Below are positions 9,250 to 37,655 of a DNA stretch of 64,000 bases, piece after piece. The number at the start of each line of letters is the position of its first letter. Within the stretch, counting starts at the first letter, position 1. This stretch comes from an uncultured Acidobacteriaceae bacterium (GTDB lineage Bacteria; Acidobacteriota; Terriglobia; Terriglobales; Acidobacteriaceae), in NCBI GenBank assembly GCA_963739125.1, contig CAVTZD010000001.1, positions 4,657,107 to 4,721,106 on the forward strand, read 5' to 3'. The notes under the pieces are model-generated. The model was not told the DNA's origin, did not search any database, and was given only the letters and a program-made list of their open reading frames with translations. Both the position numbers and the translations under genes were made by a program.

Positions 9250-9256
9250 TTCAGTC

Positions 9257-22581: not shown

Positions 22582-23982
22582 CTAGGCACGCGTTTCCGTT
22601 TTCGTTCGCCGCTTCGAGGCTTCCTGCGCCATGACGTATATCCACCAGAGCAGGGGGATGACCATCAGATTCAGTTTCTCCCAGCGCAGCCAGAGAAAGA
22701 TCCAGAGCGGGCTGATGAATAGCGGAGCAACCGGGAGCAGAAGTGACCGCAGTTCCCGTGGGTTCGGGTGCGAGTCATGCCATTGCAGCGCGCAATCGTC
22801 GGCGAAGAGCGCCAGCGGCAGGACGAGAAGGCAGAGATCGTGCGCGTTGGTGTTGTAGGCGACCAGAAGCGAGGTGATCACGGCACAGGCGAAGCTGAGA
22901 CGGAAAACTCGCGCGTCGTCATTCTTGTTCGCGAGATTGGCGCTAGGGGGACTCGCCGGGCGATTTCCTGTTCGCGTCACGGCGACCAGGAGCGCTACGG
23001 AAGCTAGCAGCGCGAGCAGACGGGCTACCTGGAGAGGTCCCAGGTCTCGCAAAAACGGCGAGACCTGGGGCACCCTGAGGCGTGGCACCCACGACCGTGG
23101 CACCCACGGATGGGGCACCCACAGACGGCTCAGGTGCTGGAGAGCGGGCCAGCCGGTTGCTAAGCCTATCAGGTTTGGCATCAGGCCGAGTGGGGTTTGG
23201 CCGTGGCCGGGAATCGACACTACGCGCCAGGCGTAGGCGGGATACTGTCGCGCTCCTTGCCAGATCGCACCCGGCCAGCCGACCAGAGCGAGCGAAAGCA
23301 GCGTGACTGCGGTAGCGGTTGCGGCAAATCCGGCGGCGAGTTTCCGGCCTCGCCAGATCACGAGGATCAGAACCAGCGGCAGGGCAAAATGAAATTTAAA
23401 CAGAGCCAGCCCTAACCAACCGCCGGCGACAAGATCGGAACCGCGATCGAGAGCGCGAAAGGCGACAACGAAGACGAGGAGCAGCAAAATCGCGTCCTGC
23501 CCCTGCAGGAAATTGACGAAGACGGGAAAGAAGGCCAGCAGGGCCAGAACCCACTCCCAGAGCGGGATGTGGCGCAGGGAGATCAACCTCCCGCGCAGCA
23601 GGGCCGCGATGGCAACCAGTATGCCGAGGTTCAGAAGATTCCAGACCATAAACGCCTGGCCATACGGCAGCAGAGTCAGGGGCACGAAAATCAGGGCTTC
23701 GAACGGCGGATGAATGTAGGGCAAGGGTCCGCGGCGAATATCGGAGTTGGTAGTGAATTCGCGTTGGACGGATTCCTGGACGGCGGCGCTGTAGAGGGAA
23801 GATCCGCGGCCCTGGCGCAGGATTTTCGCCGCCGTGTAGTAGACGGTGAAGTCGGGATCTCCTTTGTCGATGCGGCCACGGACGCTCCAGAGGAAAAACA
23901 GATGCGTGCCGGCCATGGCCAGCAGGGATAGACGAAAGATCGTTCTGTAGAAGGTTTGCGAGGACCCTGGACGCCAGCTCAT
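22582..23982 (-). CDS. Polytopic membrane protein, DUF2029 / glycosyltransferase family 87-like
   Basis: 466 aa. The DPDFTVYYTAAKIL...LYS...LPYIHPPFEALIFVPLTLLPY pattern is typical of DUF2029. It contains an in-frame copy of repeat family E at 23043-23122. Confidence 0.75.
   Translation of the reverse strand: MSWRPGSSQTFYRTIFRLSLLAMAGTHLFFLWSVRGRIDKGDPDFTVYYTAAKILRQGRGSSLYSAAVQESVQREFTTNSDIRRGPLPYIHPPFEALIFVPLTLLPYGQAFMVWNLLNLGILVAIAALLRGRLISLRHIPLWEWVLALLAFFPVFVNFLQGQDAILLLLVFVVAFRALDRGSDLVAGGWLGLALFKFHFALPLVLILVIWRGRKLAAGFAATATAVTLLSLALVGWPGAIWQGARQYPAYAWRVVSIPGHGQTPLGLMPNLIGLATGWPALQHLSRLWVPHPWVPRSWVPRLRVPQVSPFLRDLGPLQVARLLALLASVALLVAVTRTGNRPASPPSANLANKNDDARVFRLSFACAVITSLLVAYNTNAHDLCLLVLPLALFADDCALQWHDSHPNPRELRSLLLPVAPLFISPLWIFLWLRWEKLNLMVIPLLWWIYVMAQEASKRRTKTETRA
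23043..23122 (+). repeat. REP-like element, family E, located inside a CDS
   Basis: The hairpin GGTCTCGCAAAAACGGCGAGACC is followed by GGGGCACCC, GTGGCACCCAC x2 and TGGGGCACCCAC. The minus-strand gene reads it as WVPHPWVPRSWVPRLRVPQVSPFLRD. Confidence 0.75.
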
Positions 23983-24013
23983 GTTGAACCAAAGAAAAAG
24001 ACTGCCGGCGTAC

Positions 24014-24122
24014 GGGGGCTGAAGCCCCCATTCGATTGGCAGGATTTACGCGGCGCTGAAGCGCCGCTCTTCCACGTCAGTGCGGGCATTTGTGAGTTTT
24101 TCCGCAGCCTCTAAGTCGTGCC
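24014..24122 (+). repeat. Composite REP: GGGGGCTGAAGCCCCC hairpin plus family B core plus 3' extension
   Basis: The architecture matches 40635-40697 (first two modules) and 21436-21509 (core plus extension). Confidence 0.75.
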
Positions 24123-24503
24123 CTTCCCGAACCATTGTGGCGGCGTCGGCCGACGCCGCACCGCTCGCCATACCATTCCGGACGGTCGACCGACGTCGTC
24201 CCTTGCCGGGACCATTTCATCGAGATGGCTGGGCCATCGCGATTGGCCCGGTTACTTCGGGTGTCCCCGAGGATGCAAGAATTTACCACTTTTCTTCTTT
24301 GTGCGGGGTATGATTAGCGGCAGAGTGCGCGGTGTCTTAAAACCGACTCAGCGAAACAGGTCGAAACCCGGGACAGGCTCCGGGGAACGAGCTGTCCCCC
24401 CTTGCTGAGGCGTTGAAAAGACGATCTTAGTAATTGAGCTACGCGATTCAGCTGGGTGATTTTGCTTCGCGATTTCGCAGGGGGGAAAATCTGGAGAATA
24501 TTT

Positions 24504-24665
24504 ATGGAGCTTGTGAGCAGACTTTGGCATGAACAAGCGGGACAAGACATCGCCGAATATGCGGTGATGCTGGCGGTGATCCTTGTTATTGTGGTTGGAA
24601 CCATTCAGTTGATCGGGTCCAGCGCAAACACGGTGTTCTCGTCAGTGTCCAGCACCCTTCAGTAG
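24504..24665 (+). CDS. flp: Flp-family type IVb pilin
   Basis: 53 aa from ATG 24504: MELVSRLWHEQAGQDIAEYAVMLAVILVIVVG... It carries the Flp processing motif G-x4-EY followed by a hydrophobic helix. It sits immediately upstream of cpaB. Confidence 0.9.
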   Translation: MELVSRLWHEQAGQDIAEYAVMLAVILVIVVGTIQLIGSSANTVFSSVSSTLQ

Positions 24666-24751
24666 CCGCCAAACCCAATGCGCAAGCAGCAACGTCCTCT
24701 GGTATTTTGGCAGGGGAGAAGTAGCAGCAGTTTCTGTTTCCAAGGAACAGC

Positions 24752-25615
24752 ATGAACCGCACCCGTTTGTTGATGATCGGAGTTCTGGCGCTGGCTCTGG
24801 GCCTGTTTGCCAGCATGTACGTTTATCGCAACCTGCAGGGCAAGAACAGCGGCAGCATGGAGAGCGGTGTGCAAGTCATTGTTGCCGCCGACGATCTGCA
24901 GGTCGGCGCCCGGGTGGAAGAGCATGACATCAAGGTGATCACGATTCCAGCGGCCGATCTGCCGGCGGGCGCGCCCAGAAAGCGCTCGGAAGTGGTGGGG
25001 CATGGCGTGATCATTCCGATTTCGAAGGGCGAATTCATTCTGTCGAACAAGCTGGCGGGAGAAAATGCAGGAGCCGGGCTGCCGTCGTTGATTCCTCCGG
25101 GAATGCGGGCGGTTTCGGTGCGAGTGAATGAAGTGGTTTCGGTGGCCGGGTTCGTGACTCCGGGAACGCGAGTCGACGTGCTGCTGACCGGCACGCCGGG
25201 CGCGGGCAGCGAACAGGAAACTACGACCGTGCTGCAGAACGTTGCGGTGCTGGCTGCCGGGCATACGCTCGAGCGCACGGCGACGGGCGAAGCGCAGAAT
25301 ACTCCGGTCATCACGCTGCTGGTTTCGCCGGACGACGCGCAGCGGCTGACGCTGGCCAGTTCCGAAGGACATATTCAGCTGGCGCTGCGCAATCCGCTGG
25401 ATACGCTGGCCCAGGAGGTTCCGTCGTCAGGAGCGAGATCGTTATACAAGGGCATGCCCGCGGCGGCGCCGGTGGTGAGGACCGCGGTGCGGCGCGCTCC
25501 GGCGCCGGAAAAGGCTGCTCCAGCACCGACTCCCGCGGGAGTGAGCATTGAAGTCTACCAGGGCGACAAGAAGCAGGAAGTAAAGTGCACGGAGGAGAAT
25601 TGCGGCACGAACTGA
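24752..25615 (+). CDS. cpaB: Flp pilus assembly protein CpaB/RcpC
   Basis: 287 aa. An N-terminal TM anchor is followed by a SAF-like domain (VIVAADDLQVGARV) and RcpC-like repeats. Its position between flp and the secretin supports the call. Confidence 0.9.
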   Translation: MNRTRLLMIGVLALALGLFASMYVYRNLQGKNSGSMESGVQVIVAADDLQVGARVEEHDIKVITIPAADLPAGAPRKRSEVVGHGVIIPISKGEFILSNKLAGENAGAGLPSLIPPGMRAVSVRVNEVVSVAGFVTPGTRVDVLLTGTPGAGSEQETTTVLQNVAVLAAGHTLERTATGEAQNTPVITLLVSPDDAQRLTLASSEGHIQLALRNPLDTLAQEVPSSGARSLYKGMPAAAPVVRTAVRRAPAPEKAAPAPTPAGVSIEVYQGDKKQEVKCTEENCGTN

Positions 25616-25670
25616 GCGGGCGCGAAGCAGAGGGCCTTACCCATTTCCACACTGGGAGAAGAATCGGAAA

Positions 25671-27116
25671 ATGAAAGTTTGCAAGCTGTCGCTTGGGGCT
25701 TTAGTGCTGGTCCTCGCCGCCCTTCCAGCGTTTGCCGTCATGCGGCAACAGGCCGACGCGGCGCCGCAGTCGCAGAGCCCAGAACCGACCGGTACCCAGA
25801 CCACGACTCTGTCTCCGCAGTCGCAGCAGTCCCAAGGATCGGCGCCGCTGCGGGTGATGGTGGATAAGTCGCTGCTAATCAACACGACCGAACGGCTGCG
25901 GCGCATTTCAATTACCGATGGGTCCATCGCTACGGCGCAGGTGATTACGCCGACGCAAATTCTGGTTCACGGCAAATCTCCGGGAGAAGTTTCGTTGCTG
26001 ATCTGGGACGAACTGGAGCGCTCGCGGAGTTTTGATCTGCGGGTGGATGTCGACGTCAGCGCGTGCGCGGAGGAGGAACATCGCGTTTTCCCGGATGAGC
26101 AGATCACGGTGACTCCATCGCGCGCCGCCATTGTGCTTTCCGGGCATGTCACGACCGAGGACGTAGCCAAGCGCGCCGGAGATCTAGCCAGCGCGTACTC
26201 GCCGAAGGTAGTGAACGTTCTTACCTTTGGTCCGGTCGGCTCGCAGGAAGTGCTGCTGCAGGTGAAGTTCGCCGAAGTGGATCGCACCGCGCTCACTCAG
26301 ATGGGCGTGAACTTCGTCTCGACTGGCGCCACCAACACGGTTGGAACATTGGGCACGGGTCAGTATGGCGGCTTCGGCCCGCAAACGCTGACACCGCCGG
26401 GATCGTCGAGCAGTTCATCCGGGGGCAGTACGACGACGACCACCACCACCGCCACGACCGTCGGCGCGCAGACCATCAGCAACGTGCTGAACCTTTTTCT
26501 TTTCCGTCCTGACATCAACTTCGGAGCGGTGATCGAGGCGCTTCAGACCAAGAACCTGCTGCAGATTCTGGCCGAGCCGAACCTGATTGCGGTGAACGGA
26601 AAAGAAGCCAGCTTTCTGGCTGGCGGGCAGTTCCCTTTTCCCATCGTGCAGCCGGGCGCGGGATTCACGGCAGTGACGATTTCGTTCAAGGATTTCGGCG
26701 TGAGGCTGCAGTTCACTCCGGTGATCATGCCCAACGGAAATATTCACCTGAAGGTTGCCCCGGAAGTGAGCACGCTGGATTTTTCGAATGCGTTGACCAT
26801 TTCGGGGTTCACGGTTCCGGCGCTGAGCACGCGCAAGGCGGAGACCGAATTTGAATTGCAGGATGGCCAGAGTTTCGTGATCGCGGGCCTGATGGATAAC
26901 CGCGTGACCGATATCTATAACAAGATTCCCGGGCTGGGCGATATCCCGATCCTGGGAAATTTCTTCAAAAGCAAGAGCGTGCAGAAGAGTAATACTGAGC
27001 TGATGGTGCTGTGCACGGTCCGGCGCATTTCCCCCAACGCGGAGCCGCCGACTCTGCCCAAGAATCCGCAGCCGTTCCTGAATCCGGGACAGTTTGACAA
27101 GGAACGCAAAAAGTAA
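25671..27116 (+). CDS. cpaC: Tad secretin CpaC/RcpA
   Basis: 481 aa. It has a signal peptide and a BON-like N-domain. The C-terminal secretin core reads ILAEPNLIAVNGKEASFLAGGQFPFP...IPGLGDIPILGNLFKS-like. It contains a Ser/Thr-rich insert. Confidence 0.93.
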   Translation: MKVCKLSLGALVLVLAALPAFAVMRQQADAAPQSQSPEPTGTQTTTLSPQSQQSQGSAPLRVMVDKSLLINTTERLRRISITDGSIATAQVITPTQILVHGKSPGEVSLLIWDELERSRSFDLRVDVDVSACAEEEHRVFPDEQITVTPSRAAIVLSGHVTTEDVAKRAGDLASAYSPKVVNVLTFGPVGSQEVLLQVKFAEVDRTALTQMGVNFVSTGATNTVGTLGTGQYGGFGPQTLTPPGSSSSSSGGSTTTTTTTATTVGAQTISNVLNLFLFRPDINFGAVIEALQTKNLLQILAEPNLIAVNGKEASFLAGGQFPFPIVQPGAGFTAVTISFKDFGVRLQFTPVIMPNGNIHLKVAPEVSTLDFSNALTISGFTVPALSTRKAETEFELQDGQSFVIAGLMDNRVTDIYNKIPGLGDIPILGNFFKSKSVQKSNTELMVLCTVRRISPNAEPPTLPKNPQPFLNPGQFDKERKK

Positions 27117-27159
27117 GCGGTCCGCGGGATGGTCCCAGATTGCGCGGAGCCAAAAGCTT

Positions 27160-27228
27160 TCACCGCGAAGAGCGCAAGAGATTGGCAAGAACCACGAAAA
27201 GAAACAGAATCACAGAGGTTCGCGGTGA
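27160..27228. repeat. Palindromic element (family G) in the cpaC-cpaE spacer
   Basis: The 10-bp inverted repeat TCACCGCGAA ... TTCGCGGTGA flanks an A-rich loop (AAGAACCACGAAAAGAAACAGAATCACAGAGG). Confidence 0.6.
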
Positions 27229-27249
27229 GGGGCAGACCGCGCGATTGGT

Positions 27250-28422
27250 ATGGCCGAGCTTTCCGTCGTGATCATCGCCGCCGATAACGAACAGCGCGCG
27301 CTGTTGCAGGTGCTGGTGGATGGCACCAACCTGGCGCGCACGGCGCATTCCAGCGCCAGTTTTCCGGTATCGGCGTCCGATCCGGTGACGCGGCGCGTGC
27401 GCAGCGCGAATCCCGACGTGACTCTGGTCGACATACCCGCGGACAATCCCTCGACGGCGTTGCGTGCCATCGAATTGCTGCATCAGGAAGTGCCGGAGTG
27501 CGCGGTATTCGCCGTGGGCAGCCTGAGCCAGCCCCAGGTCATCGTAAATGCGATGCGAGCCGGAGCCGGGGAATTCATCGAGCGGCCCACGAACACGACC
27601 GATTTGATTGATGCGTTCGTGCGGCTTTCGGCGGAACAGCGCCGCGGGCGGCAGGAGGGTCCGCGGGGCAAGGTTTTTACGGTGATCAACGCCAAGGGCG
27701 GAAACGGCGCGACCACGGTGGCGGTGAATCTGGCTGTCGCCCTGCAGTCGACGCATGGGCAGACGGCGCTGGTCGATATGGCGCCGCTCGGTCATGCGGC
27801 GCTGCACATGAATCTCAAGCCGGTGTTCAACGTGGCCGATGCCACGCGCAATCTGCACCGCATGGACGCTTCCCTGCTGGAGAGCTTCATGACGCGCCAC
27901 ACGGGAGGGCTGCAACTGCTGGCGGGAAGCGGCGTGCCGGCGGCGATCGACTCGACGACGGCGGATTTCGTTCGCCTGTTCGACATGCTGGTGACGCATT
28001 ACCGTTATGTGGTGGTGGATTCGTCGTCGCGCTTCGACGCGGCCAGCCGATTGATTGCAAACCTTTCGGAAACCGTGTTGCTGGTGGCCTGCACCGATGT
28101 GGCATCGCTGTGGAGCGCCGCGCGGGTGCAACAGTATCTCGGTGAAACCGGGAGCCGGGAACGAGTGCGGCTGGTGCTGAATCGGTTCCGCAAAGTTCCG
28201 GGCTTCAGCGAAGCGGACGCGGAAGCAGCGGTGGGAGCGAAGTTGTTGTGGCGCGTGCCGAACCAGTATTTCGCGATCTCGACCGCGATTGATCGCGGCA
28301 CGCCAGTGATGGATCAGCGCAACAGTGAAATGGCGCGCTGCTTTGCTGGACTGGCGGCGGAGTTGACGCGCAACGATGTCGACGTAAAGCGCGCGGCGTG
28401 GTCGATGTTTAAGTCGGTATAG
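27250..28422 (+). CDS. cpaE: CpaE/TadZ pilus-assembly ATPase-like protein (receiver-like N-domain + MinD/ParA-type domain)
   Basis: 390 aa. It has a deviant Walker A (NAKGGNGATT). Its position between the secretin and cpaF supports the call. Confidence 0.88.
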   Translation: MAELSVVIIAADNEQRALLQVLVDGTNLARTAHSSASFPVSASDPVTRRVRSANPDVTLVDIPADNPSTALRAIELLHQEVPECAVFAVGSLSQPQVIVNAMRAGAGEFIERPTNTTDLIDAFVRLSAEQRRGRQEGPRGKVFTVINAKGGNGATTVAVNLAVALQSTHGQTALVDMAPLGHAALHMNLKPVFNVADATRNLHRMDASLLESFMTRHTGGLQLLAGSGVPAAIDSTTADFVRLFDMLVTHYRYVVVDSSSRFDAASRLIANLSETVLLVACTDVASLWSAARVQQYLGETGSRERVRLVLNRFRKVPGFSEADAEAAVGAKLLWRVPNQYFAISTAIDRGTPVMDQRNSEMARCFAGLAAELTRNDVDVKRAAWSMFKSV

Positions 28423-28451
28423 TGGGACCGGGTTGGCCGGTTGGAGTTTGC

Positions 28452-28540
28452 GGGGAAAATCCCCACGTCTCGCAAAAGCCGCGAGACCCTTCGGCAAGCT
28501 CAGGGCAGGCTATGGGGCACCCTACGGATATGGGGCACCC
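28452..28540 (+). repeat. REP-like element, family E
   Basis: It has the GGGGAAAATCCCC hairpin, the GTCTCGCAAAAGCCGCGAGAC hairpin and two ATGGGGCACCC units. It lies in the cpaE-cpaF spacer. Confidence 0.75.
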
Positions 28541-28558
28541 GACAGCTAGAGAATTCTT

Positions 28559-29851
28559 ATGGCGAATTTGCAATCGTTTGAGAGGGCCGATTACCAGCAG
28601 GTAAAAGCTGACCTGCACCGGAAGATCCTGGACCGGCTCGATCTGGAGCGGCTGGGCAAAACCGGGGATTCGGCGCGCGACGAAGTTCTGATCGTGATTC
28701 GCAGCGCCGTCCAGAGCGAGGCGGTTCCTCTCAGCTTTGCCGAGCGCGAACGGCTGTCGCGCGAAATTCTGGACGAGATTTTTGGCCTGGGCCCGCTGGA
28801 ACCGCTGCTGAAAGATCCGACGGTTTCCGACATCCTGGTCAATCGCTTTGACCGCGTCTACATTGAGCGCGCCGGCAAGCTCGAGCTGACCAGCTTTTCT
28901 TTCAAAGACAATTCACACCTCATGCAGATCATCGAGCGGATCGTTTCGCGCGTGGGCCGGCGCGTGGACGAATCTTCGCCGATGGTCGATGCGCGCCTGA
29001 CCGACGGATCGCGCGTGAATGCCATCATACCTCCGCTGGCGATCGATGGGCCGTGCCTGTCGATCCGGCGTTTCGGGCGCGACCCGATTACCGCGCGCCA
29101 GATGATTGAGAATCACACGCTGACTGAGCCCATGCTGGAATTGCTCTCGGCGATGGTGAAGGGGCGATTGAACATTCTGGTCTCGGGCGGAACCGGCGCG
29201 GGCAAAACGACCCTGCTGAACGTGCTTTCCGGATACATTCCGAACTCGGACCGCATCGTGACCATCGAAGACGCGGCCGAACTGCAGCTCAAGCAGGAAC
29301 ACGTGGTGCGCCTCGAAACGCGTCCACCGAACATTGAAGGCAAGGGCGCGGTGCGGCAGCGGCAGCTGGTGATCAACAGCTTGCGTATGCGTCCCGACCG
29401 GATCGTGGTGGGCGAGGTGCGCGGTGAAGAAGCATTTGACATGTTGCAGGCCATGAACACCGGCCACGAAGGCTCGCTGACCACGGTGCACGCCAATACG
29501 CCGCGCGATGCGCTGGCCCGCGTGGAAAATATGGTCTCGATGGCCAACCTGAGCATTCCGGAGCGAGCGGTGCGGCACCAGATTACCTCGGCGATTCATG
29601 CCGTGATCCAGATTGCGCGCCTTTCCGACGGCACGCGCAAGGTGATGACCATTTCCGAAATCACCGGCATGGACGACAGGGACATCGCCATGCAGGACAT
29701 TTTTAATTTCGAACGCACGGGGATCGATGAGAACGGGAAGGTGCGCGGAGCATTCCGCGCGACCGGGACGCGCCCGAAATTCGCCGAGCGGCTGGCGACT
29801 TCGGGAGCGCGGCTGCGCCCGGCTCTGTTTGAGTCGAAGAGCGAGGTCTAA
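28559..29851 (+). CDS. cpaF: Tad secretion ATPase CpaF/TadA
   Basis: 430 aa. It has Walker [10 protein letters not shown], the Asp box and His box of secretion ATPases ([19 protein letters not shown]). Confidence 0.96.
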
Positions 29852-29857
29852 GGGTTT

Positions 29858-30829
29858 ATGTCGGCATTCCTGGTTGCGCTGCTGGTGTTGGTGCTGGTCG
29901 CGATGGCGGTTTTCGCCGTAGTGATGCTGTTCGACCAGCGCCGGGCGCAAGCCCGCCTCATCAAAGAGCGGCTGGCCGACGAACGCAAGGCTCCGGAACT
30001 TGGCACCGAGGAAGCGCCCGCTCTGGTGCGGGATGAGCAGCTCAGCAACATTCCGGCCCTGGACGCACTCCTGCGGCGGTCGGAGCGCGTTTCGGCCATC
30101 CAGAAGATGCTGCTGCAGGCCGGCCTGACGATGCGGGCGGGCAATTTTCTCGGGCTCTGCGCCGTGGCAGGAATTGTGGGCGCAGTGGCGGGCTACACCC
30201 TGGGCAAGAGGGTCGAGGTCGCATGGATCGCGCTGCTAGCCGGCTTCCTGGTGCCTTACGCCTATGCCTCTTACCGCCGCACCAAGCGCTTTGAGAAATT
30301 TGAGGAGCTTTTCCCCGAGGCCATCGACACGCTGGCGCGCGCGGTTCGCGCCGGACACGCTTTCACCACCGCGCTGGAACTGATTACCAGTGAAATCAGC
30401 GAACCGATTGCCGGCGAATTCCGCCAGCTTTTCGAAGAGCAGAAGTTCGGCATGCCGGTGCGCGACGCATTGATGAACCTGACCGACCGCATGCCGCTGG
30501 TGGACGTGAAGTTCTTCGTGACCGCCGTGATGCTGCAGCGTGAAACCGGCGGCAACCTGGCCGAGATTCTCGACAACCTGTCGTATGTGATCCGCGAACG
30601 GTTCAAGATCCAGCGCCAGGTGCGCGTCTACACCGCGCAGGGGCGGCTCACCATGGCGCTGCTGATGGGTATGCCGCCGATCATCGTCGTGGTCATGCTG
30701 GTGCTCAACCCGAGTTTTATTCAACCGCTGTTCCGGGACCCGATCGGCCACACGCTGCTGGTGGCTGGAATCACGCTGCAGACGGTGGGATATTTTGTGA
30801 TCCGCAAGATCATCCGGATTCAGGTCTAA
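29858..30829 (+). CDS. tadB: Tad platform protein TadB (type II secretion system F family)
   Basis: 323-aa membrane protein with a T2SSF-type cytoplasmic domain. It starts 6 nt after cpaF. Confidence 0.9.
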   Translation: MSAFLVALLVLVLVAMAVFAVVMLFDQRRAQARLIKERLADERKAPELGTEEAPALVRDEQLSNIPALDALLRRSERVSAIQKMLLQAGLTMRAGNFLGLCAVAGIVGAVAGYTLGKRVEVAWIALLAGFLVPYAYASYRRTKRFEKFEELFPEAIDTLARAVRAGHAFTTALELITSEISEPIAGEFRQLFEEQKFGMPVRDALMNLTDRMPLVDVKFFVTAVMLQRETGGNLAEILDNLSYVIRERFKIQRQVRVYTAQGRLTMALLMGMPPIIVVVMLVLNPSFIQPLFRDPIGHTLLVAGITLQTVGYFVIRKIIRIQV

Positions 30830-30861
30830 ATGAAGCAGGTTTAAAGAAGCAGGTTTAGGCA

Positions 30862-31764
30862 ATGCCGATCGTTCTGCCCATTATCGTTTTCGTGACCATC
30901 GCGCTGGTGGTGTTCGTGTTCGGCGCGGCCGTGGTCAGCCCGAGTTCGGTTCTGGGCGCCCGTCTGCGCGCCCTGGGCGGCATACAGCGGCCTACGGAAG
31001 CCAAGCCGGCGATGAAGGAGCGCGTGGAGCGCGCGCTCGATCCGCTGACCAGGGCGATTCCGCTTTCTCCCGCCGACGTTTCCCGAACCCGCGCCTGGCT
31101 CATTCAGGCGGGACTGCGCGACGCCCGCCATGTGAACTACTATTTCGGCGCGCGCCTGCTGCTGGCTGCCGCAGGGTTTGTCGGCGTGGCGGTTTTCTCG
31201 GGCTTCAACAACACGCTGCTGTTGGCCGGCATTCCGGGTCTGGGCTTCTTTCTGCCGCGCTTTTTCCTGAAGAGGATGATCCGAGATCGGCAGCAGCGGA
31301 TTCGCCTGGGTTTGCCCGATGCTTTGGACCTGACCGTGATCTGCGTGGAAGCCGGGCTTGCCCTCGATCAGGCCTTGATGCGCGTAGGCCAGGATCTGCA
31401 TCATGCCCATCCCGATCTGAGCAATGAATTCCATCTGGTGAACCTCGAGATGCGGGCCGGCAAACCCCGCGCCGAAGCGCTGCGCAACCTGGTCGACCGA
31501 ACCGGGGTTGACGACATCCGTTCCCTGGTTGGTACACTCATTCAGACAGATCGCTTCGGCACCAGCGTCACCCAAGCTCTGCGCGTGTATTCCGACTCCC
31601 TCCGCACGGAACGCCGGCAGCGGGCCGAAGAGCAGGCGGCGAAGACTACCATTAAGATGATCCCCCCACTGGTGATATTTGTTCTGCCCTCGATCATGTT
31701 CGTCACCATCGGACCGGCTGTCATTTCGCTGATTCGGCAACTGGGACCGGTTTCGGGCCACTGA
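30862..31764 (+). CDS. tadC: Tad platform protein TadC (type II secretion system F family)
   Basis: 300-aa membrane paralog of tadB, immediately downstream of it. Confidence 0.9.
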   Translation: MPIVLPIIVFVTIALVVFVFGAAVVSPSSVLGARLRALGGIQRPTEAKPAMKERVERALDPLTRAIPLSPADVSRTRAWLIQAGLRDARHVNYYFGARLLLAAAGFVGVAVFSGFNNTLLLAGIPGLGFFLPRFFLKRMIRDRQQRIRLGLPDALDLTVICVEAGLALDQALMRVGQDLHHAHPDLSNEFHLVNLEMRAGKPRAEALRNLVDRTGVDDIRSLVGTLIQTDRFGTSVTQALRVYSDSLRTERRQRAEEQAAKTTIKMIPPLVIFVLPSIMFVTIGPAVISLIRQLGPVSGH

Positions 31765-31809
31765 GAGGCGGCGAAGCAGGCAGGCGGAATCCGGGGAGCA
31801 TCGCACTTC

Positions 31810-32289
31810 ATGGCTGTTTTTTCATCGGAGCGCCAGGCCTTCAATCGCACCCGCCAGAGGCAACTCGCCTCCGCGCTGGCCGTGGCCGACACGCACTGGA
31901 GCCGGCTGCGCGGACTGTTAGGCCTGCGTTCGAGTGACTTCCGTAATGGATACGGTCTCTGGATTGTTCCCTGCCACGGCGTTCATACTTTAGGAATGGG
32001 ATTTCCCATCGACGTCGTCTACCTTGACCAGGCGATGACGGTGATTCGCGTAGAGGCTGAGCTGCGGCCCTGGCGTGTGGCGCCGGTGACTTTGCAGGCG
32101 GCGTCTGTGCTGGAACTTCCCTGCCGCACAGCGGTCGAAACCGGAACCGCGGTGGGCGATAGAATTGAGATCACCGCGGGAGCGGAAATCCGGGATGCAG
32201 AGATCCCAGATGCAGAGATCCAAGCAGAGACCCTGGATGCAAAGATCCTAGATGCGGGCCGCAGTGGGTTTTCCGCGCGAAGGCAGTAA
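31810..32289 (+). CDS. DUF192 (COG1430) domain protein with C-terminal pentapeptide-repeat tail
   Basis: 159 aa. The core (RLRGLLG...GLWIVPCHGVHTLGMGFPIDVVYLD...VLELP) matches DUF192. The tail reads AEIRD AEIPD AEIQ AETLD AKILD. It starts 45 nt after tadC. Confidence 0.8.
   Translation: MAVFSSERQAFNRTRQRQLASALAVADTHWSRLRGLLGLRSSDFRNGYGLWIVPCHGVHTLGMGFPIDVVYLDQAMTVIRVEAELRPWRVAPVTLQAASVLELPCRTAVETGTAVGDRIEITAGAEIRDAEIPDAEIQAETLDAKILDAGRSGFSARRQ
32182..32253 (+). repeat. Imperfect 15-bp tandem repeat (5 units) encoding the DUF192 tail
   Basis: The units are GCGGAAATCCGGGAT, GCAGAGATCCCAGAT, GCAGAGATCCAA, GCAGAGACCCTGGAT and GCAAAGATCCTAGAT. Confidence 0.8.
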
Positions 32290-32311
32290 GGGGAGGCTGT
32301 AAACAGAGACC

Positions 32312-34834
32312 GTGGCAGCAACCGTCCAACTCGAAGAGACAGTGCAACTGCACGGCGAGCCGAAGCTGCTGGTCGAGTGGCCGTCGCCGTGGCAGGAGTT
32401 TGTCACGTCGTTGCGCCCCGCGCTGGCGCGCTCGGAAGCGCGGCTCGCCGGGGAAGCTCCGTTTGGGCTGGTTCCGTTTCGCATCATGATCCCCTCCTAT
32501 GTGGTGGAGGCGTTTGTGATCTTTGCCGCGATTATTGTTCCGGTAAAGCTGGCGCAATTGCGGCCCTATGCGGTGCCACGTCTGTCGAGCCGCGACGTGA
32601 TTTATTACAGTGGCGACGAACTGCCCCGCACCGAAGACCTTAGCGGCGCCGAGGCGGGAAGCACCGGCAGCGCCGGCGGCGACGAAGCCCACCATCGCAC
32701 GCAGACCATCAAGGTTGCGCGCGGGGGATCGCTGGCGCCGAAAATTGTGGATGCGCCCAACTTGCGACTTCCCGCGACGCGCGACGCGGTGGCGAACCTG
32801 CTGGCGATCAGCCCCAACGCGGGGCCACCGCCGGTCGAAGGCGTGCGCTCAGCGCGCAACGTGCCCAATCTTTCCGCAGTGGTGGCCCCGGCGCCCGACG
32901 TAGTGCGGGACTACACGCGCAACGGCATTGCGCTCAATGCCGTGGTACCGCCGACACCCAACTTCTCGCGCGACCAACCGCTGGTTGCGCCGAGGCTGAA
33001 CGTCGATGTGATTCCGCCCGCGCCGAACGTCGCGCAACATGCCCTGGTGGCTCCGGCGCTGGCACCGAGCGTGATTCCTCCAGCGCCCAGCGTTTCACAG
33101 GAACACCGGCTGACCCTGCCGGCGCTCAATTCCAGCGTGATCGCGCCCGCGCCCAGCCTGACGCACGACCATGGCCGCCCTGTTCCCGCGCTCGCCGCCA
33201 GCGTGATTCCGCCCGCGCCGGGAGGAGTGAGCCGCCAAATTTCCAGTTCGCCGGTGCAGATGGCAAACGTTGCTGTCGTGCCGCCGCCGGCATCCGCGCC
33301 GGAGCGAGTGAGCCAACGCAATTCCAAGCTGACTTTGCCGACGCCGTCGGTCATTGCGCCGCCGCCCTCGACCGACGTTTCGCAGGATATGCGCCGCCTG
33401 GCCAGCGGCAGCGTTCCCGATCCTTCGAAGACGGTGGTGCCTCCGCCGCCGACGCAATCGGGCAGCGGATCGTTTATGAGCAGTTTGATCGGCAAGATTT
33501 TCGGCAGCACGGAGGTTGTGCCGCCTCCGCCCGCGGTGAATGCCAAGAGTGACCGTGGCAGCGGGGCTGAGCTGGCGACTAACGTTGTGCCGCCTCCGCC
33601 TTCGGTAGCGAGCGGCTCTGCCGGAGGCACTCCGCGCGGAGCGCGAAATGGAGCCAGCACATCTCTGGGGACCAACGTCATCGCTCCACCGCCTTCGGCT
33701 GGGATATCGACGATCAACGGCGCGCACACGCTGGCCTCCGCCGCCGCGCCTGGGCTGGGAGCGCCGAGTGTAGTGCCGCCTCCGCCCGCGCTGGCAGGCC
33801 GGGGCGGCGGTACGGGAAAGACCGGTGGGGGCGCGGGAACTCCCAGGGGCACGCTGCTGGCCAACAATGTGGTGCCACCTCCACCGTCGCTGGGCGGAGG
33901 GTCGAATGCCGCCGGATCAGGCCTTGGGCGCAACGGCGCTGGCCTGGCACGGGCGATGGATGCCAACTCAGCCGCTCCGGCTGCGACCACTGGCGGCAGC
34001 GGCAACAATGCCGGCGCGGTCATCTCGAGCCAGCCCGGCGCCAAGGTTGGGCTGCCGTCCGTGGGCGGCACTGGATCGCTTGCGCTGTCGCCGGCCGGCG
34101 GGGAGAAACCCGGCCTTGGTGGGGCCGGTGGAGGAACCAGCATTGGCCGCGGCACGGACTCGGGTAGCGGAATCAAGGGCGCAGGGCCCGGCGCTGGCAT
34201 CAGCAACTCAGGCCGCGGGTCTGACGCGGACACGCACGGAGGAATCTCGCCCGTCCCCGGCCCGGGAGGCGCGGGGAATGCTCCTTCAGTGAATCCGCCG
34301 GTGCGGGGAGTGGACATCAGCGGCGGCAGCACGATTGTTACCCTGCCGAGTTTCGGGTCGGATGCGTCGAATGATCCCGGTGCGACGCCTGGGCACTCCA
34401 TGAGCAAGGAACGGCAGACACTGGGAGTGACCGTGGTTGCCACCGCAACCTCCGGCGGCGCTTTTGAGCCGTACCGGAACCTGCTGCACGGGCAGACCTA
34501 TACTACCTATCTCGATACTTCGCTGGGAACGGTGGTGATGGAGTTTGCCGGCGAGGGCGCGCCCGGCAATCGACCGGGAGGGCTCTCGGCTCCGCAGGGC
34601 ATCCGCACGGACCTACCGGCCGGGCTGCCGCACACCCGCGTGGTGCTGACCTGCACGCTCGATGCTGCGGGCGACCTGAAGAACGTGCGCGTGCGCGAAG
34701 GTCCCATCGATATGACTACGAGAGTGCTGGCCGCCCTGCGGGGATGGAAATTTCAGCCCGCCATGCGCGGCGACCAGCCGGTTGAGGTCACGGCCATCCT
34801 CGGCTTCAACATCAACACCAACGACCGCTTCTAG
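32312..34834 (+). CDS. Giant TonB_C-domain protein: cytoplasmic N-terminus, one TM helix, 14 V-[VI]-[PA]-P-x-P repeats, Gly-rich region, C-terminal TonB-type domain
   Basis: 840-aa ORF from GTG 32312, 22 nt after the DUF192 gene. The TM helix is MIPSYVVEAFVIFAAIIVPV. The repeats span about 32876-33887. The C-terminus (LTCTLDAAGDLKNVRVREGP...ALRGWKFQPAMRGDQPVEVTAILGFNI) is TonB_C-like. Confidence 0.85.
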   Translation: MAATVQLEETVQLHGEPKLLVEWPSPWQEFVTSLRPALARSEARLAGEAPFGLVPFRIMIPSYVVEAFVIFAAIIVPVKLAQLRPYAVPRLSSRDVIYYSGDELPRTEDLSGAEAGSTGSAGGDEAHHRTQTIKVARGGSLAPKIVDAPNLRLPATRDAVANLLAISPNAGPPPVEGVRSARNVPNLSAVVAPAPDVVRDYTRNGIALNAVVPPTPNFSRDQPLVAPRLNVDVIPPAPNVAQHALVAPALAPSVIPPAPSVSQEHRLTLPALNSSVIAPAPSLTHDHGRPVPALAASVIPPAPGGVSRQISSSPVQMANVAVVPPPASAPERVSQRNSKLTLPTPSVIAPPPSTDVSQDMRRLASGSVPDPSKTVVPPPPTQSGSGSFMSSLIGKIFGSTEVVPPPPAVNAKSDRGSGAELATNVVPPPPSVASGSAGGTPRGARNGASTSLGTNVIAPPPSAGISTINGAHTLASAAAPGLGAPSVVPPPPALAGRGGGTGKTGGGAGTPRGTLLANNVVPPPPSLGGGSNAAGSGLGRNGAGLARAMDANSAAPAATTGGSGNNAGAVISSQPGAKVGLPSVGGTGSLALSPAGGEKPGLGGAGGGTSIGRGTDSGSGIKGAGPGAGISNSGRGSDADTHGGISPVPGPGGAGNAPSVNPPVRGVDISGGSTIVTLPSFGSDASNDPGATPGHSMSKERQTLGVTVVATATSGGAFEPYRNLLHGQTYTTYLDTSLGTVVMEFAGEGAPGNRPGGLSAPQGIRTDLPAGLPHTRVVLTCTLDAAGDLKNVRVREGPIDMTTRVLAALRGWKFQPAMRGDQPVEVTAILGFNINTNDRF

Positions 34835-34876
34835 CCACCGAGGCTCGATATAAGTGCGCCATTACCCGCGCTCTCT

Positions 34877-34903
34877 GCGAGGAGCGGGGACGCCGCTCCT
34901 CGC
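34877..34903 (+). terminator. Strong hairpin after the giant TonB_C gene (no U-tract)
   Basis: The 11-bp stem is GCGAGGAGCGG-ggacg-CCGCTCCTCGC. It lies 43 nt after the stop at 34834. No T-run follows, so terminator function is uncertain. Confidence 0.3.
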
Positions 34904-35030
34904 GGCTGGTTACCGATGGACGTGGAACGTCGTCGGATTCATGCCGACGCGCCCCTCCGCCGATGAATGCTTTGACGGGAACAGCGCGTATCAGGAACCT
35001 ATATCCAGCACGTTCCGGAGGAGCCGAGCA

Positions 35031-35384
35031 ATGAATTTCGATGAAGCGATCGCAGCCCATGGTAACTGGAAACAGAAGCTGGCAGACTATCTTCGCAAAC
35101 CCGATGGCAGCCTGAAGGCTAGCGAGATCTCTGCGGACAATAAATGCACGTTAGGGCAATGGATTCATGGGGAGGGAGCGAAGTACTCCAAGTTATCGGA
35201 GTACAGCGCGCTGAAAACCGATCACGCCCGTTTCCACAAGTCCGCCGCAGAAGTGGTCAGGAAGGCGGACGCCGGGCAGTCCGTCGCGGAAGAGACCGCG
35301 CTGGGGTCGAAGAGTGAATTCGGAACCGCGTCGAGCGCGGTGGTGATGGGCATCATGCACATGAAGAAACACGCGGCCCAGTAG
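35031..35384 (+). CDS. Stand-alone chemoreceptor zinc-binding (CZB) domain protein, copy 1
   Basis: 117 aa from ATG 35031 with GGAGGAG upstream. The CZB pattern is present: AIAAHGNWK...C-T-LGQWI...DHARFH (His, Cys, H-x3-H). Confidence 0.85.
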   Translation: MNFDEAIAAHGNWKQKLADYLRKPDGSLKASEISADNKCTLGQWIHGEGAKYSKLSEYSALKTDHARFHKSAAEVVRKADAGQSVAEETALGSKSEFGTASSAVVMGIMHMKKHAAQ

Positions 35385-35599
35385 CTCAGCTGGCAAAGGC
35401 AAAAGGGCGGAGCAGAAGACGACGACCTAAGGGGAGCGTGTTGAGGTGTTTGCTCTTCGCCTTCGGCTGGGAGGGCGGGCTTATATCAGCATCAGCACCA
35501 ACGTCCGTTCCCGGGCGACTGCTCCTACGTGTGGCTTATGCCCGCTGCGCCGATGTCAGACAAGACACGGGAGAGTCCGTCCCGACGGGGGGCACGGCT

Positions 35600-35980
35600 A
35601 TGGATTTTGACGAGGCCATTGCAATCCACAGCAAGTGGAAGCGCAAACTGCGCCAGTATCTGGCGAAGCATGACGGCAGCCTGGATCCTGCCGAGGTCGG
35701 TCACGACGACCGGTGCACTCTTGGCAAATGGATTTACAGCGAAGGTGCGGCCTACTCAGCCATGCCCGAGTATGTCAAGCTGCGATTTGAACACGCACGG
35801 TTTCACGCCATTGCCGCAGAACTCGTGAGAAAGGCAAACGCCGGACAAGCCATGAGTTCTCACCTTGACCCGTGCGCCGGCAGCGAATTCTCAAAGGCTT
35901 CCTCGGCCATTGTGAGGGCCCTGACGGAGATGAAGAAGCGCGTGTCGGAATCCCGTGCGCGCTCGCGTGCACACGCGTAA
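35600..35980 (+). CDS. Stand-alone chemoreceptor zinc-binding (CZB) domain protein, copy 2
   Basis: 126 aa from ATG 35600. It is a paralog of copy 1, roughly half identical by eye. It has AIAIHSKWK...C-T-LGKWI...EHARFH and a basic C-terminal tail. Confidence 0.85.
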   Translation: MDFDEAIAIHSKWKRKLRQYLAKHDGSLDPAEVGHDDRCTLGKWIYSEGAAYSAMPEYVKLRFEHARFHAIAAELVRKANAGQAMSSHLDPCAGSEFSKASSAIVRALTEMKKRVSESRARSRAHA

Positions 35981-36017: not shown

Positions 36018-37655
36018 CTAGCGCTTTGTGATCCCCTCCTCGAACACGACGGCAACGTCGTCGGCATAGACTTCCTTCCACGGGGGACTCGCGAGAAGAA
36101 TGCTGGTCAAGGCTGCATCCCTTGGCATAATCACGCAGGATGCGGGATGATCGCGGAGAAAATCCTGCCAGACGGGCTCGACCCGCACCATCTTCAAGTA
36201 AGACTTGAAGAATTCCGCGCCGTATAAATCGTGACGATCGTCAACCACCACTTGCGCCTGGGGATACATCCGGTAAATCAGGTAGCCGCCCCAGGAGTCC
36301 GGGCCGAGAACGGGCCCACGCTCGCCTTGCTGCTCGAGATAATCGACCGCCGCGACGGGCATCCGCTTCGGGTCAAAGTGAGCGTCGATCAAGGGCTTTG
36401 ACGAGATGCGACCGCCGTTGGCGACGATGGCGAGCGTGACCACGATGGCTGCGATCGGCCAGAGATGGCCGCGCAGGCTGCACTCGACTGCCGTCATTTT
36501 CTGGGAGAATCGTTTCTCAGAAAACCGGTGGGCGAATGGAATCGCCGACAACGGACCCACCACCATGACCAGCAGCAACGAAGAAACGGGGAGATTGCGC
36601 GAGGCGTAGAGCCCGGCATAAATCGCAAACAGGACGGTGAACAGTCCGCTCAGGCGCAATTCGCGGCCACGCGCAGCAAACACCGCCAGAGCGATCAGCA
36701 CCAGGATGAGGAAACATTTCTGGGCTACGCCGTGAAAGTCGGGCGAGCGGAATTCGTCGATGTGATCCATCAGGAAGCGGTTGGAGAGATAGGCGTAGAC
36801 GTGTGCGTATAGCTTCCATCCGTAGGGGTTGAGCAGGCTGGCCGCCGCGGAGAGAAATCCCACGAGGGTTAAATTCAGCGCTTCCTGGCGAGCTGCGAGC
36901 TTGACCAGCGAGTCTTCGATGCGGCTTGGGCTGGCCGTGAGCCAGGTCCAGAGGGCGCTCAGCCAGAAAATTGCCAGCAGGACAAAGCCCACCAGAAATC
37001 CGCCGTGAACATTCACCCACACCAGCATCAGCGACGGCAGAGCCCACAGAAATCGCCGTGGGGAAGGCGACCATGCCCCGCCCAAACCGCTGAGACTTTC
37101 GCGCTCCGATGCGTCGAGAATCGCGAACCAGGCAAGAGTAAACAGCCAGCTCAGGACATGCGGCCGGGCGAGGAAATGAATCGTCGACGCCGACATTGCC
37201 AACAGTACCAGGACGATGGCAAACAAGATATTGGTTCTGCGCCGCATCAGCAGGCGGAAGCACCAGGCAAACACAGCCGCAATCACCACGGCGGTAAACC
37301 ATACGACACCATTCAACCCCATGCGGGCGTCGAGTTGGCCGACGACAATGTCGTAGAGCCATTCCCAGGCGAACCATTCTTTTGATCTCGGGGAGAATTG
37401 CTTCGCAGAAGATAGTTGGCCGGCCAGGGTTGATGAAAACGGATCGACCCTGGGGATGGCATGCGTGGCGAGAATCTGCTGGCCGGTGCGGATGTGCCAT
37501 CCAATGCCGGCGTCGCCCAGCAGGCGAACCGAGAGCGGCGTAAAGATGAGCACGCCCAGCACCGCGACAAAAAACAGATCTGCCGCGGACGGCATCGCCC
37601 TCAGTACCCACGCCTGGGTTACCGCTTCGGGAGAACTCTTGGAACCTTCTGCCAT
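36018..37655 (-). CDS. Large polytopic membrane protein, possible GT-C-type glycosyltransferase (function uncertain)
   Basis: About 545 aa from ATG 37655 with more than 10 hydrophobic helices. The N-terminal GIGWHIRTGQQILATHAIPRVDPFSST segment resembles uncharacterised GT-C-like membrane proteins. The track ORF extends to 37829 but would then overlap the ndh promoter and start. Confidence 0.6.
   Translation of the reverse strand: MAEGSKSSPEAVTQAWVLRAMPSAADLFFVAVLGVLIFTPLSVRLLGDAGIGWHIRTGQQILATHAIPRVDPFSSTLAGQLSSAKQFSPRSKEWFAWEWLYDIVVGQLDARMGLNGVVWFTAVVIAAVFAWCFRLLMRRRTNILFAIVLVLLAMSASTIHFLARPHVLSWLFTLAWFAILDASERESLSGLGGAWSPSPRRFLWALPSLMLVWVNVHGGFLVGFVLLAIFWLSALWTWLTASPSRIEDSLVKLAARQEALNLTLVGFLSAAASLLNPYGWKLYAHVYAYLSNRFLMDHIDEFRSPDFHGVAQKCFLILVLIALAVFAARGRELRLSGLFTVLFAIYAGLYASRNLPVSSLLLVMVVGPLSAIPFAHRFSEKRFSQKMTAVECSLRGHLWPIAAIVVTLAIVANGGRISSKPLIDAHFDPKRMPVAAVDYLEQQGERGPVLGPDSWGGYLIYRMYPQAQVVVDDRHDLYGAEFFKSYLKMVRVEPVWQDFLRDHPASCVIMPRDAALTSILLASPPWKEVYADDVAVVFEEGITKR

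Follow-up and report, generated by a model that had tools for sequence, protein, structure and literature searches.

A probable variant of the Tad pilus operon in Terriglobia that ends in a DUF192 gene and a long gene of probable TonB origin

Gene content of the locus

Many bacteria use Tad pili for adhesion, biofilm formation and predation, and the parts of these pili are regarded as largely known. Here we describe a Tad locus in a stretch of 64,000 nucleotides from an uncultured Acidobacteriaceae bacterium (contig CAVTZD010000001.1), the whole of which is referred to as the window. The window has a G+C content of ~60%, and its proteins match metagenome-assembled genomes (MAGs) named Candidatus Sulfotelmatobacter, Acidobacteriaceae or Terriglobales. 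A metagenome contig of 1.12 Mb in the ENA (ERZ25039467:contig_26731) contains the same DNA. At positions 24504-34834, nine genes follow one another on the plus strand in the order flp-cpaB-cpaC-cpaE-cpaF-tadB-tadC-DUF192-TonB_C gene (Table 1), the last two coding for a DUF192 protein of 159 aa and a TonB-derived protein of 840 aa, for which we use the working name T840. The successive spacings are 86, 55, 133, 136, 6, 32, 45 and 22 nt. The initial annotation, made from the sequence alone, had described flp to tadC as a tightly spaced, co-directional block that continues after gaps of 45 and 22 nt into the DUF192 gene and the 840-aa gene; all nine genes were recovered where it had placed them, on the plus strand and, except for flp, with Pfam support, and both gaps are exact.

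The locus is probably an intact Tad (type IVc) pilus operon in a variant form that is conserved in Candidatus Sulfotelmatobacter-like Terriglobia, and would represent a previously undescribed subtype. The two genes at its end appear to be integrated accessory genes of the Tad module, an explanation that we hold as a whole with moderate confidence.

Table 1. Features of the Tad locus in the window, with the basis of each assignment.
Feature	Position	Strand	Basis
Leader upstream of flp, presumed promoter/leader	23983-24503	+	520-nt intergenic region; role presumed from position alone
flp, 53-aa Flp-type prepilin, class-III signal ...EQAG/QDIAEYAVMLAVILVIVVG	24504-24665	+	motif and hydrophobic helix
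cpaB/rcpC, alignment-complex protein	24752-25615	+	Pfam RcpC 106 bits, 1.3e-30; TIGR03177 210.8 bits (cut-off 71)
cpaC/rcpA, secretin	25671-27116	+	Pfam Secretin 152 bits, 1.1e-44; T2SS-T3SS_pil_N 1.6e-13; weak BON
cpaE/tadZ, ParA/MinD-type ATPase with receiver-like N-domain	27250-28422	+	AAA_31, CbiA, ParA, weak Response_reg
cpaF/tadA, secretion ATPase	28559-29851	+	T2SSE 212 bits, 1e-62; TIGR03819 2.6e-102
tadB, platform protein	29858-30829	+	T2SSF 4.5e-19
tadC, platform protein	30862-31764	+	T2SSF 6.6e-20
DUF192 protein, 159 aa, soluble	31810-32289	+	Pfam PF02643 / COG1430, 54.9 bits (cut-off 27)
T840, TonB-derived bitopic protein, 840 aa	32312-34834	+	sole Pfam match TonB_C, residues 776-828
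T840: cytoplasmic N-terminal motif LLVEWxSxWxEF..PA..RS..LAGEA and single transmembrane helix	32312-32551	+	alignment, hydropathy, AlphaFold2
T840: membrane-proximal periplasmic module (IYYSGDELPRTEDLGGA..GRAGG.EAHH.TQTI..ARG...VVDAPNL.LP....VANLLA)	32585-32836	+	family alignment
T840: 13 V-[VI]-[AP]-P-[PAT]-P motifs, then Gly-rich low-complexity region to ~residue 660	32879-33886	+	variable-length linker
T840: C-terminal module, TLPSFGSD... subdomain and TonB_C beta-beta-alpha-beta unit	34307-34831	+	~175 residues, conserved
GC-rich hairpin after the operon	34875-34905	+	arms 34877-34887 / 34893-34903

Conservation of the tadC-DUF192-T840 order

A scan of GTDB species genomes with the DUF192 alignment yielded 80 loci, all from close relatives, and a metagenome scan, for which a DUF192 representative with 53-59% identity to the protein of the window served as anchor, contributed another 80 loci that are more distant. 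The order flp-cpaB-cpaC-cpaE-cpaF-tadB-tadC-DUF192-T840 is present in every one of the 80 GTDB species-level loci and recurs in the 80 more distant metagenome loci; overall, this order of nine genes is found in ~150 related Terriglobia loci. The initial annotation had proposed to look in relatives for DUF192 and a long TonB_C gene after tadC, and both are found there: among the 160 pooled genome and metagenome loci, the distance from tadC to the DUF192 gene downstream of it is at most 1.5 kb in 141 of the 142 loci with enough flanking sequence, and the N-terminal module of T840 is encoded downstream of DUF192 in 132 of 133. The sole break in the tadC-DUF192 adjacency is due to an inserted BrnT-like toxin open reading frame (ORF) and a 257-aa gene (L148:8481-9915). 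CpaF is 74-96% identical across the related loci, and T840 33-77%. Two of the window-type loci (L049 and L081) stem from different contigs of one MAG (MFD03346.bin.2.99), which indicates either a duplication or a mixed bin, and several loci bear implausible MAG names (Tepidisphaeraceae, Methylomirabilota, Binatus, Verrucomicrobiia) that suggest mis-binned contigs.

The start codon of T840 overlaps the stop codon of DUF192 by 4 nt (GTGA, ATGA or TTGA) in 112 of 153 loci (73%), so that the two genes usually stand in the classic arrangement for translational coupling. The window departs from this overlap, with 22 nt between the DUF192 stop and the T840 start. Its DUF192 protein has a 27-aa C-terminal tail encoded by tandem repeats of ~15 nt (DAEIP/DAEIQ/...; window 32170-32289), and it is this tail that parts the two genes where most relatives overlap by 4 nt; the DUF192 proteins of the relatives measure 131-132 aa and have no repeat tail.

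In the divergent locus L173, the order is flp-A24-rcpC-secretin-tadZ-tadA-tadB-tadC-DUF192-TonB_C (593 aa, with an overlapping start)-methyltransferase-like membrane protein-TadE, and the flanks differ from those of the other loci, with a PEMT-like gene upstream and spermine-synthase-like and DnaJ genes downstream. As L173 keeps the DUF192-T840 pair amid unrelated flanks, the pair evidently travels with the Tad core independently of regional synteny.

This bears on the possibility that DUF192 and T840 are two unrelated passengers that are simply held next to the Tad genes by regional synteny in one clade. The whole neighbourhood of 20 kb is indeed collinear among close relatives, with GT87 genes upstream and membrane protein, NDH2 and NfeD genes downstream, and most of the synteny count is therefore non-independent and weak by itself. 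The independent support for an integrated tail rests on L173, on the start-stop overlap and on the TonB-like genes of canonical loci that are described below. Against a neutral adjacency stands also that the loci differ in the stretch directly behind T840, which contains two CZB genes, BNR_2 or nothing, whereas tadC-DUF192-T840 remains constant, and that DUF192 is linked to Tad genes in four phyla and in several gene orders. Together with the overlap of the two genes and the differing flanks of L173, these observations speak strongly against such passengers, which we consider highly improbable.

A signal-less DUF192 subfamily in Tad loci of four phyla

Relatives of the DUF192 protein were searched exhaustively in 1.84 billion cluster representatives, of which 6939 matched at E<=1e-3, and 63 of the best representatives were aligned with the protein of the window (alignment A1). 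The sequences of this alignment start directly with the domain (xFNxTR...), and G35, P54, H59 and D68 are invariant. The polar residues R32, H59, D68, E102 and D117 suggest a ligand- or partner-binding pocket. The AlphaFold2 model (predicted local distance difference test score, pLDDT, 79; first strand from residue 8) matches the structures 3pjy and 3m7a with a Foldseek probability of 1.0 and target-normalised template-modelling scores of 0.61-0.71, and 3pjy is also matched by the profile (8.5e-8), but neither the fold nor the profile comparison gave a match to any structure of known function. There is no signal peptide in the DUF192 protein of the window, none of its 19-residue segments is hydrophobic, the domain begins at residue ~8, and this no-signal state holds for the whole Tad-linked subfamily, which is therefore likely cytoplasmic. 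The protein differs in this respect from the solved and the proteomically detected DUF192 members, which have a signal peptide or are periplasmic.

More distant gene contexts were collected by a profile search with contig look-ups, by the metagenome scan and by tblastn against plasmids, and a profile of distant representatives reached homologues at 40-50% identity. Loci with Tad or prepilin peptidase genes contain the signal-less subfamily with the motif GVHT...PIDVxYLD in four phyla, namely Acidobacteriota, Pseudomonadota, Actinomycetota and Bacillota. Six acidobacterial loci of canonical architecture (L090, L092/L093, L094, L096, L097 and L098) have the order flp(-flp)-A24-tadZ-tadA-tadB-tadC-[31-aa microprotein]-DUF192-(PilZ)-TadE-TadE-TadG...rcpC-secretin, and L090 has a second DUF192 gene after the secretin gene. 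On a Moraxella bovis plasmid (L181, NZ_CP087831) the order is cpaB-secretin-ATPase-tadB-tadC-DUF192-TadE, and on Streptomyces plasmids (13 records matched, two of them inspected) it is cpaF-tadB-tadC-small ORF-tadE-tadE-tadG-LysM giant (~1120 aa)-DUF192. An Alkaliphilus plasmid carries DUF192 3 nt after a prepilin peptidase gene. The plasmid-borne proteins retain the SVHT/SIHT and IDVxYLD motifs. Over all these contexts, DUF192 mostly stands right after tadC or at the end of the operon, often beside a large lineage-specific protein. Judged from sequence and gene context, the signal-less GVHT-type DUF192 gene is a recurrent Tad-locus gene in four phyla to which the literature has paid hardly any attention, and the protein is neither an envelope protein nor lineage-specific. 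The single mention of DUF192 within tad operons that we found is in the 2025 genome paper on Bulleidia extructa, in which a gene for a 112-aa DUF192 protein is penultimate in the tad operon and is followed by a gene for a coiled-coil protein; the same pair was noted to lie consistently beside tad genes in a few Bacillota including Helcococcus, and no function was proposed (PMC12786226).

The canonical acidobacterial loci have further peculiarities. In two of them, the first TadE-type pseudopilin has an N-terminal PilZ domain (L090:10548-11492 and L096:10449-11318; PilZ at residues 32-117, TadE motif at 157-198), and such a fusion would place a domain of cyclic-di-GMP type as a very long "leader" before the class-III signal. 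The position of the fusion is occupied by a PilZ gene of its own in L092, L094 and L097. The microprotein between tadC and DUF192 is a single helix of 31 aa (MDNxTLIRIxAGxLFxxVLIxLIQRRRxRV) that is encoded in all canonical acidobacterial loci (L090:9784-9879, L092:9854-9949, L094:1233-1328, L096:9752-9847, L097:9869-9964, L098:9819-9914) and not in loci of the window type; neither the window nor any of the 80 related genome loci was matched by tblastn with the peptide. Toxin-type genes directly follow the plasmid-borne DUF192-Tad loci, with RHS-repeat toxin genes in Moraxella (L181) and LamG-like and HINT-type polymorphic-toxin genes in Streptomyces (L182), and in another Streptomyces plasmid (L180) IS5 transposase genes and an Imm21 immunity-protein gene come after the Tad locus. 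These toxin genes are reminiscent of contact-dependent killing by Tad-like machines.

T840, a probably TonB-derived protein of a new family

The transmembrane (TM) helix of T840 comprises residues ~56-80 (56-86 in the AlphaFold2 model) and contains S62xxxE66. At the position of the glutamate, 106 of 110 sequences have E, two have H and two have Q, and the SxxxH signature of TonB and TolA is found in the two most divergent members, those of L144 and L173. We also considered that the helix might be pilin-like, with SxxxE as counterpart of the pilin residue E5, and this was ruled out by the SxxxH of the divergent members and by the residue at -1, which is not Gly. The juxtamembrane module of ~85 residues is strongly conserved without having a Pfam match, and a hidden Markov model (HMM) of the N-terminal part of the family gave no match outside the T840 family. 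The 13 VVPPPP-type motifs are spaced by 21-33 residues within residues 190-525. Homologues have lengths of 513-888 aa, the proline-repeat and Gly-rich parts being variable, and full-length sequence identities amount to 59-77% in close relatives and drop to 33-39% in the loci that diverge most, for example L173. The C-terminus adopts a beta-beta-alpha-beta arrangement in the AlphaFold2 model at a pLDDT of ~60, and a comparison of T840 with PDB sequences gave no match. By its modules, T840 is a lineage-specific and probably TonB-derived protein of a new family, and its layout would be that of an inner-membrane-anchored protein that spans the periplasm.

A C-terminal module of the T840 type is not restricted to the loci of the window type. 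The HMM of this module matches genes for TonB-like proteins of ~540 aa in the canonical loci L090, L096 and L098 (1e-11 to 4e-8, HMM positions 24-168), which lie between tadG and rcpC and code for proteins with SxxxH and with Pro-rich and Gly-rich regions, and it gave no match to the TolA-like TonB_2/TonB_C protein that is encoded elsewhere in the window. These matches point to a specific TonB subfamily that is tied to Tad loci of two architectures. A small unannotated ORF between a histidine kinase gene and dnaE (window 48867-49268, plus strand, 134 codons from stop to stop) is matched by the same HMM in its TonB_C part alone (E 4e-5).

Could T840 simply be an ordinary TonB paralogue that energises TonB-dependent outer-membrane transporters and merely lies downstream of the pilus genes or is co-transcribed with them, so that DUF192 alone would be Tad-related? 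T840 indeed has the N-terminal TM helix and the Pro-rich spacer of a TonB protein together with a C-terminal match to TonB_C, the members of L144 and L173 retain the canonical SxxxH, and many TonB_C proteins exist in Acidobacteria, T840 itself being annotated as "energy transducer TonB" in the sources. However, the translational coupling to DUF192 in 73% of the loci and the fact that T840 stays with the Tad genes in L173 despite other flanks are difficult to reconcile with a chance position downstream of pilus genes. SxxxH in the TM helix of TonB couples to ExbB/ExbD; in T840, this functionally critical His is Glu in 106 of 110 sequences, and there is no adjacent exbBD, nor is there a gene for a TonB-dependent transporter in the locus. 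In addition, T840 has two conserved modules that TonB does not have, and its C-terminal module is related to TonB-like genes in other Tad loci and not to the TolA-like protein of the window. We therefore regard an ordinary TonB function as unlikely, and continue with T840 as an accessory protein of the Tad module.

The sole MotA_ExbB/ExbD pair of the window belongs to a Tol-Pal cluster at a distance of 27 kb. This cluster is complete and lies on the minus strand (57726-63201), with TolQ (62422-63201), TolR (61994-62422), the TolA-like TonB_2/TonB_C protein (61213-62010), TolB (59661-61157), an OmpA-family Pal (58871-59635) and a CpoB-like TPR protein (57726-58601).

The two tail genes had initially been suggested to be lineage-specific envelope components of the Tad machine. 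That both belong to the Tad module is in line with synteny, gene overlap and L173, and T840 is lineage-specific and has an inner-membrane and periplasmic layout, but neither attribute applies to DUF192, which occurs in four phyla and has no signal peptide.

Absence of peptidase, minor pilins and TadD from the locus

The prepilin peptidase (TadV/CpaA), the minor pilins (TadE/F/G) and the TadD lipoprotein, which had been reported missing at first reading, were not found by any of the searches. A Pfam analysis of essentially all predicted genes of the window gave no Peptidase_A24, TadE, Tad (TadG) or TadD-like match, and tblastn with acidobacterial A24, TadE, TadG and PilZ sequences gave no match in the window or within +-10 kb of the 80 related genome loci. 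A further 5.9 kb to the left of the window likewise contain no gene for a peptidase, a minor pilin or a TadD-like protein. There is no TPR or lipoprotein gene in or beside the locus, the sole TPR gene of the window being that of the Tol-Pal cluster. When all six frames of the 64 kb were scanned for G-x4-E-[FY..] followed by a hydrophobic helix, the flp site was the only match, and there is thus no second class-III motif that would indicate a candidate minor pilin.

The Flp protein scores below the cut-off of Pfam Flp_Fap (16.8 versus 32.2 bits), and its cleavage context ...AG/QDIAEYAVMLAVILV, followed by a hydrophobic helix, contains the class-III signal G/QDIAEY. Class-III signal peptides are processed by A24 peptidases. 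G/QD[IL]xEY is kept in all 92 flp-like ORFs of the related loci, and GQDIAEY in 82 of them, and because this cleavage motif is so consistently kept, an A24 peptidase that is encoded elsewhere likely acts in trans. A precedent for an off-locus peptidase is tadV of Bifidobacterium breve, which lies outside the tad locus. The loss of peptidase and minor pilins from the locus is a secondary state of this locus type. As the divergent locus L173 retains both Peptidase_A24 and TadE, the locus type formerly had its own peptidase and minor pilin. That the genes are missing is a conserved and stable condition and is not due to a gap in the assembly, and the prepilin peptidase, as well as minor pilins if needed, would be supplied from elsewhere in the genome.

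A different interpretation of the same absence is that the locus encodes a reduced Tad-like machine for secretion, contact-killing or a short pseudopilus, which forms no adhesive pilus and in which T840 has a structural or energising role. Non-adhesive Tad-like machines exist, for example the Kil system of Myxococcus, TadE/F/G, A24 and TadD are missing both from the window and from +-10 kb in ~80 species, and the DUF192-Tad loci on the plasmids of Moraxella and Streptomyces adjoin RHS or polymorphic-toxin genes. On the other hand, Flp, secretin, RcpC, TadZ, TadA, TadB and TadC are all intact and well conserved, the Bifidobacterium example demonstrates that a peptidase gene need not be part of the locus, and nothing in the locus hints at a secreted substrate. 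We judge a reduced machine to be quite improbable, and an intact pilus operon with peptidase in trans remains the interpretation that we favour.

Possible roles of DUF192 and T840

The neighbours of DUF192 vary between the loci, from T840 to PilZ, a PilZ-TadE fusion, TadE, a LysM giant or a prepilin peptidase, and because of this variation its constant partner should be a core component. DUF192 may act on the TadA/TadB/TadC platform from the cytoplasmic side, or on proteins that are handed to this platform. T840 would have its N-terminus inside, its spacer would cross the periplasm, and the TonB_C-type module could dock by strand addition on a partner in the outer envelope, for which either the CpaC secretin, through its N-terminal domains, or the cell wall/peptidoglycan would be most plausible. 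In such a constellation, T840 might tether, place or help to assemble the secretin in a locus that has no TadD pilotin, and this putative role would be comparable to that of ExeB/GspB. The TonB-like protein ExeB binds the secretin ExeD at its N0N1 region, which is similar to a domain found in TonB-dependent receptors, and assembly of the secretin requires ExeB (PMC4098917). Our literature search did not turn up any mechanistic link between TonB and Tad.

Besides the collinearity of the close clade, several observations weigh against our interpretation of T840 and DUF192. The TonB_C assignment is borderline, with 26.2 bits in Pfam, or 29.3 with the isolated C-terminus (cut-off 24.6), and 23.7 bits in NCBIfam TIGR01352 (cut-off 27.1), and the full-length AlphaFold2 model of T840 is poor (pLDDT 35). 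The locus contains no exbB/exbD gene. The TonB-like gene of the canonical loci is on the opposite strand, and it is present in three of the four loci that cover the interval, being absent from L097 and also from the partial locus L094. Finally, the PDB contains two DUF192 structures, 3pjy and 3m7a, and a function has been assigned to neither.

A more far-reaching proposal would be that the membrane Glu of T840 plugs into a channel of ExbBD/TolQR type, so that the proton-motive force is transmitted across the periplasm to the Tad secretin or pilus, for example for gating, secretin insertion or retraction, and that the GVHT-type DUF192 protein is a universal, hitherto overlooked cytoplasmic assembly factor of Tad systems. 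We regard this combination as very unlikely. If it were true, it would mean a Tad machine coupled to the proton-motive force and a new family of core-associated Tad proteins.

The more modest roles would also be of relevance. DUF192, with two orphan crystal structures and a presence in tad operons of four phyla, is a testable candidate for a missing Tad factor. T840 is conserved across a clade of Acidobacteria that is abundant in peat and soil and points to how a secretin might be placed or energised in the absence of TadD, and its role, if true, would extend the ExeB idea of a TonB-like protein on a secretin to type IVc pili. Even if both genes were merely accessory, they would still be a clean genomic marker of one Tad subtype.

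Further features of the locus and its surroundings

The CpaE protein of the window is 31% identical to the TadZ of the canonical locus L090, and the two platform proteins score 69 and 72 bits against T2SSF. The 520-nt leader upstream of flp contains no ORF with coding signal and no match to a sigma-70-like consensus, an Rfam search of the locus and this leader gave no riboswitch or other known RNA, and consensus scans inside the operon gave no promoter or terminator above the shuffled background. The initial annotation had noted a strong hairpin only after the 840-aa gene, and the hairpin at 34875-34905 is the sole perfect one in 24300-35200 that has a short loop and a stem of 11 bp or more. 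It lies 40 nt past the stop codon of that gene, has perfect 11-nt arms and a 5-nt loop and folds as RNA into a 13-bp stem; it has no U-tract and was not flagged by the terminator scan.

The operon is flanked by two GT87 genes and two genes for unassigned membrane proteins (window 19974-23982 and 36018-37829). In the canonical loci, a gene of STT3/PMT_2/TMEM260_N-like type is located between two flp genes (L092:2811-4475 and L096:2785-4341). Polytopic glycosyltransferase-like proteins are thus encoded beside flp in both locus types, which is a hint of a glycosylation of the Flp pilin. An FHA-GAF-PP2C (SpoIIE) phosphatase gene is located 4.7 kb upstream of flp on the minus strand (18074-19756), and at the same position in several relatives. 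Downstream of the operon (34854-35980 and 41825-48283) there is a signalling cluster with genes for two CZB (zinc-binding) proteins, a GGDEF protein, a response regulator with HD_5 and a GAF-PAS hybrid histidine kinase. The beginning of the window (95-14780) is occupied by a phosphate/polyphosphate cluster that encodes PhoU, PstB, PstA, PstC, Ppx/GppA, a histidine phosphatase, polyphosphate kinase and PstS, as well as a 944-aa protein with a weak match to Pfam Phosphoesterase.

Comparison with known systems

The model Tad loci are flp-tadV-rcpCAB-tadZABCDEFG in Aggregatibacter, pilA-cpaA-L in Caulobacter, and flp-rcpCA-tadZABCD with fppA/tadFG in P. aeruginosa. The locus of the window shares with these canonical Tad/Cpa systems the Flp prepilin with its G/xxxxEY signal, RcpC, the RcpA secretin, TadZ, TadA, TadB and TadC in one co-directional block, but is without TadV/CpaA, TadE/F/G and the TadD/CpaD lipoprotein. 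To our knowledge, neither DUF192 nor a TonB-derived giant is part of the model Tad loci. With the canonical acidobacterial Tad loci, the window has in common that DUF192 follows tadC, that a C-terminal module of T840 type is encoded (in L090, L096 and L098), and that membrane proteins of GT-C-like type are encoded beside flp. In contrast to the window, these loci have A24, two TadE, TadG, the 31-aa microprotein and often PilZ, with rcpC and the secretin gene downstream, and their TonB-like gene differs from that of T840 by its length (~540 aa), by SxxxH and by its location on the opposite strand.

TonB and TolA share with T840 the N-terminal TM helix, the Ser four positions before the key polar residue, the Pro-rich spacer and the C-terminal beta-beta-alpha-beta unit. 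T840 differs from them by SxxxE in place of SxxxH, by the lack of adjacent exbBD/tolQR, by the additional cytoplasmic and juxtamembrane modules and by its size of 840 aa compared with ~240 aa, and it remains below the NCBIfam tonB_Cterm cut-off. ExeB/GspB, which function together with ExeA/GspA in type II secretion, are likewise TonB-like, inner-membrane-anchored, proline-rich and associated with a secretin machine. This likeness is one of layout and context alone, and T840 is 3-4 times longer, has a recognisable, if borderline, TonB_C and is not accompanied by an ExeA-like ATPase or a peptidoglycan-binding partner.

In P. aeruginosa, the RcpA secretin requires the TadD pilotin (PMC10499894), and RcpC forms an alignment ring (PMC12307814). 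Both are envelope parts that place or connect the secretin, which is the role that is proposed here for T840. However, TadD is a TPR lipoprotein that binds the C-terminus of RcpA, whereas T840 is unrelated in sequence and would be anchored in the inner membrane, and the window has an RcpC in addition. A parallel for the end of the operon is the tad tail of Bulleidia extructa and Helcococcus, in which likewise a small DUF192 protein (~112 aa) is encoded by the penultimate gene and a large protein unlike the characterised Tad components by the last one (PMC12786226), although the host there is Gram-positive and the partner is a coiled-coil protein and not a TonB_C protein.

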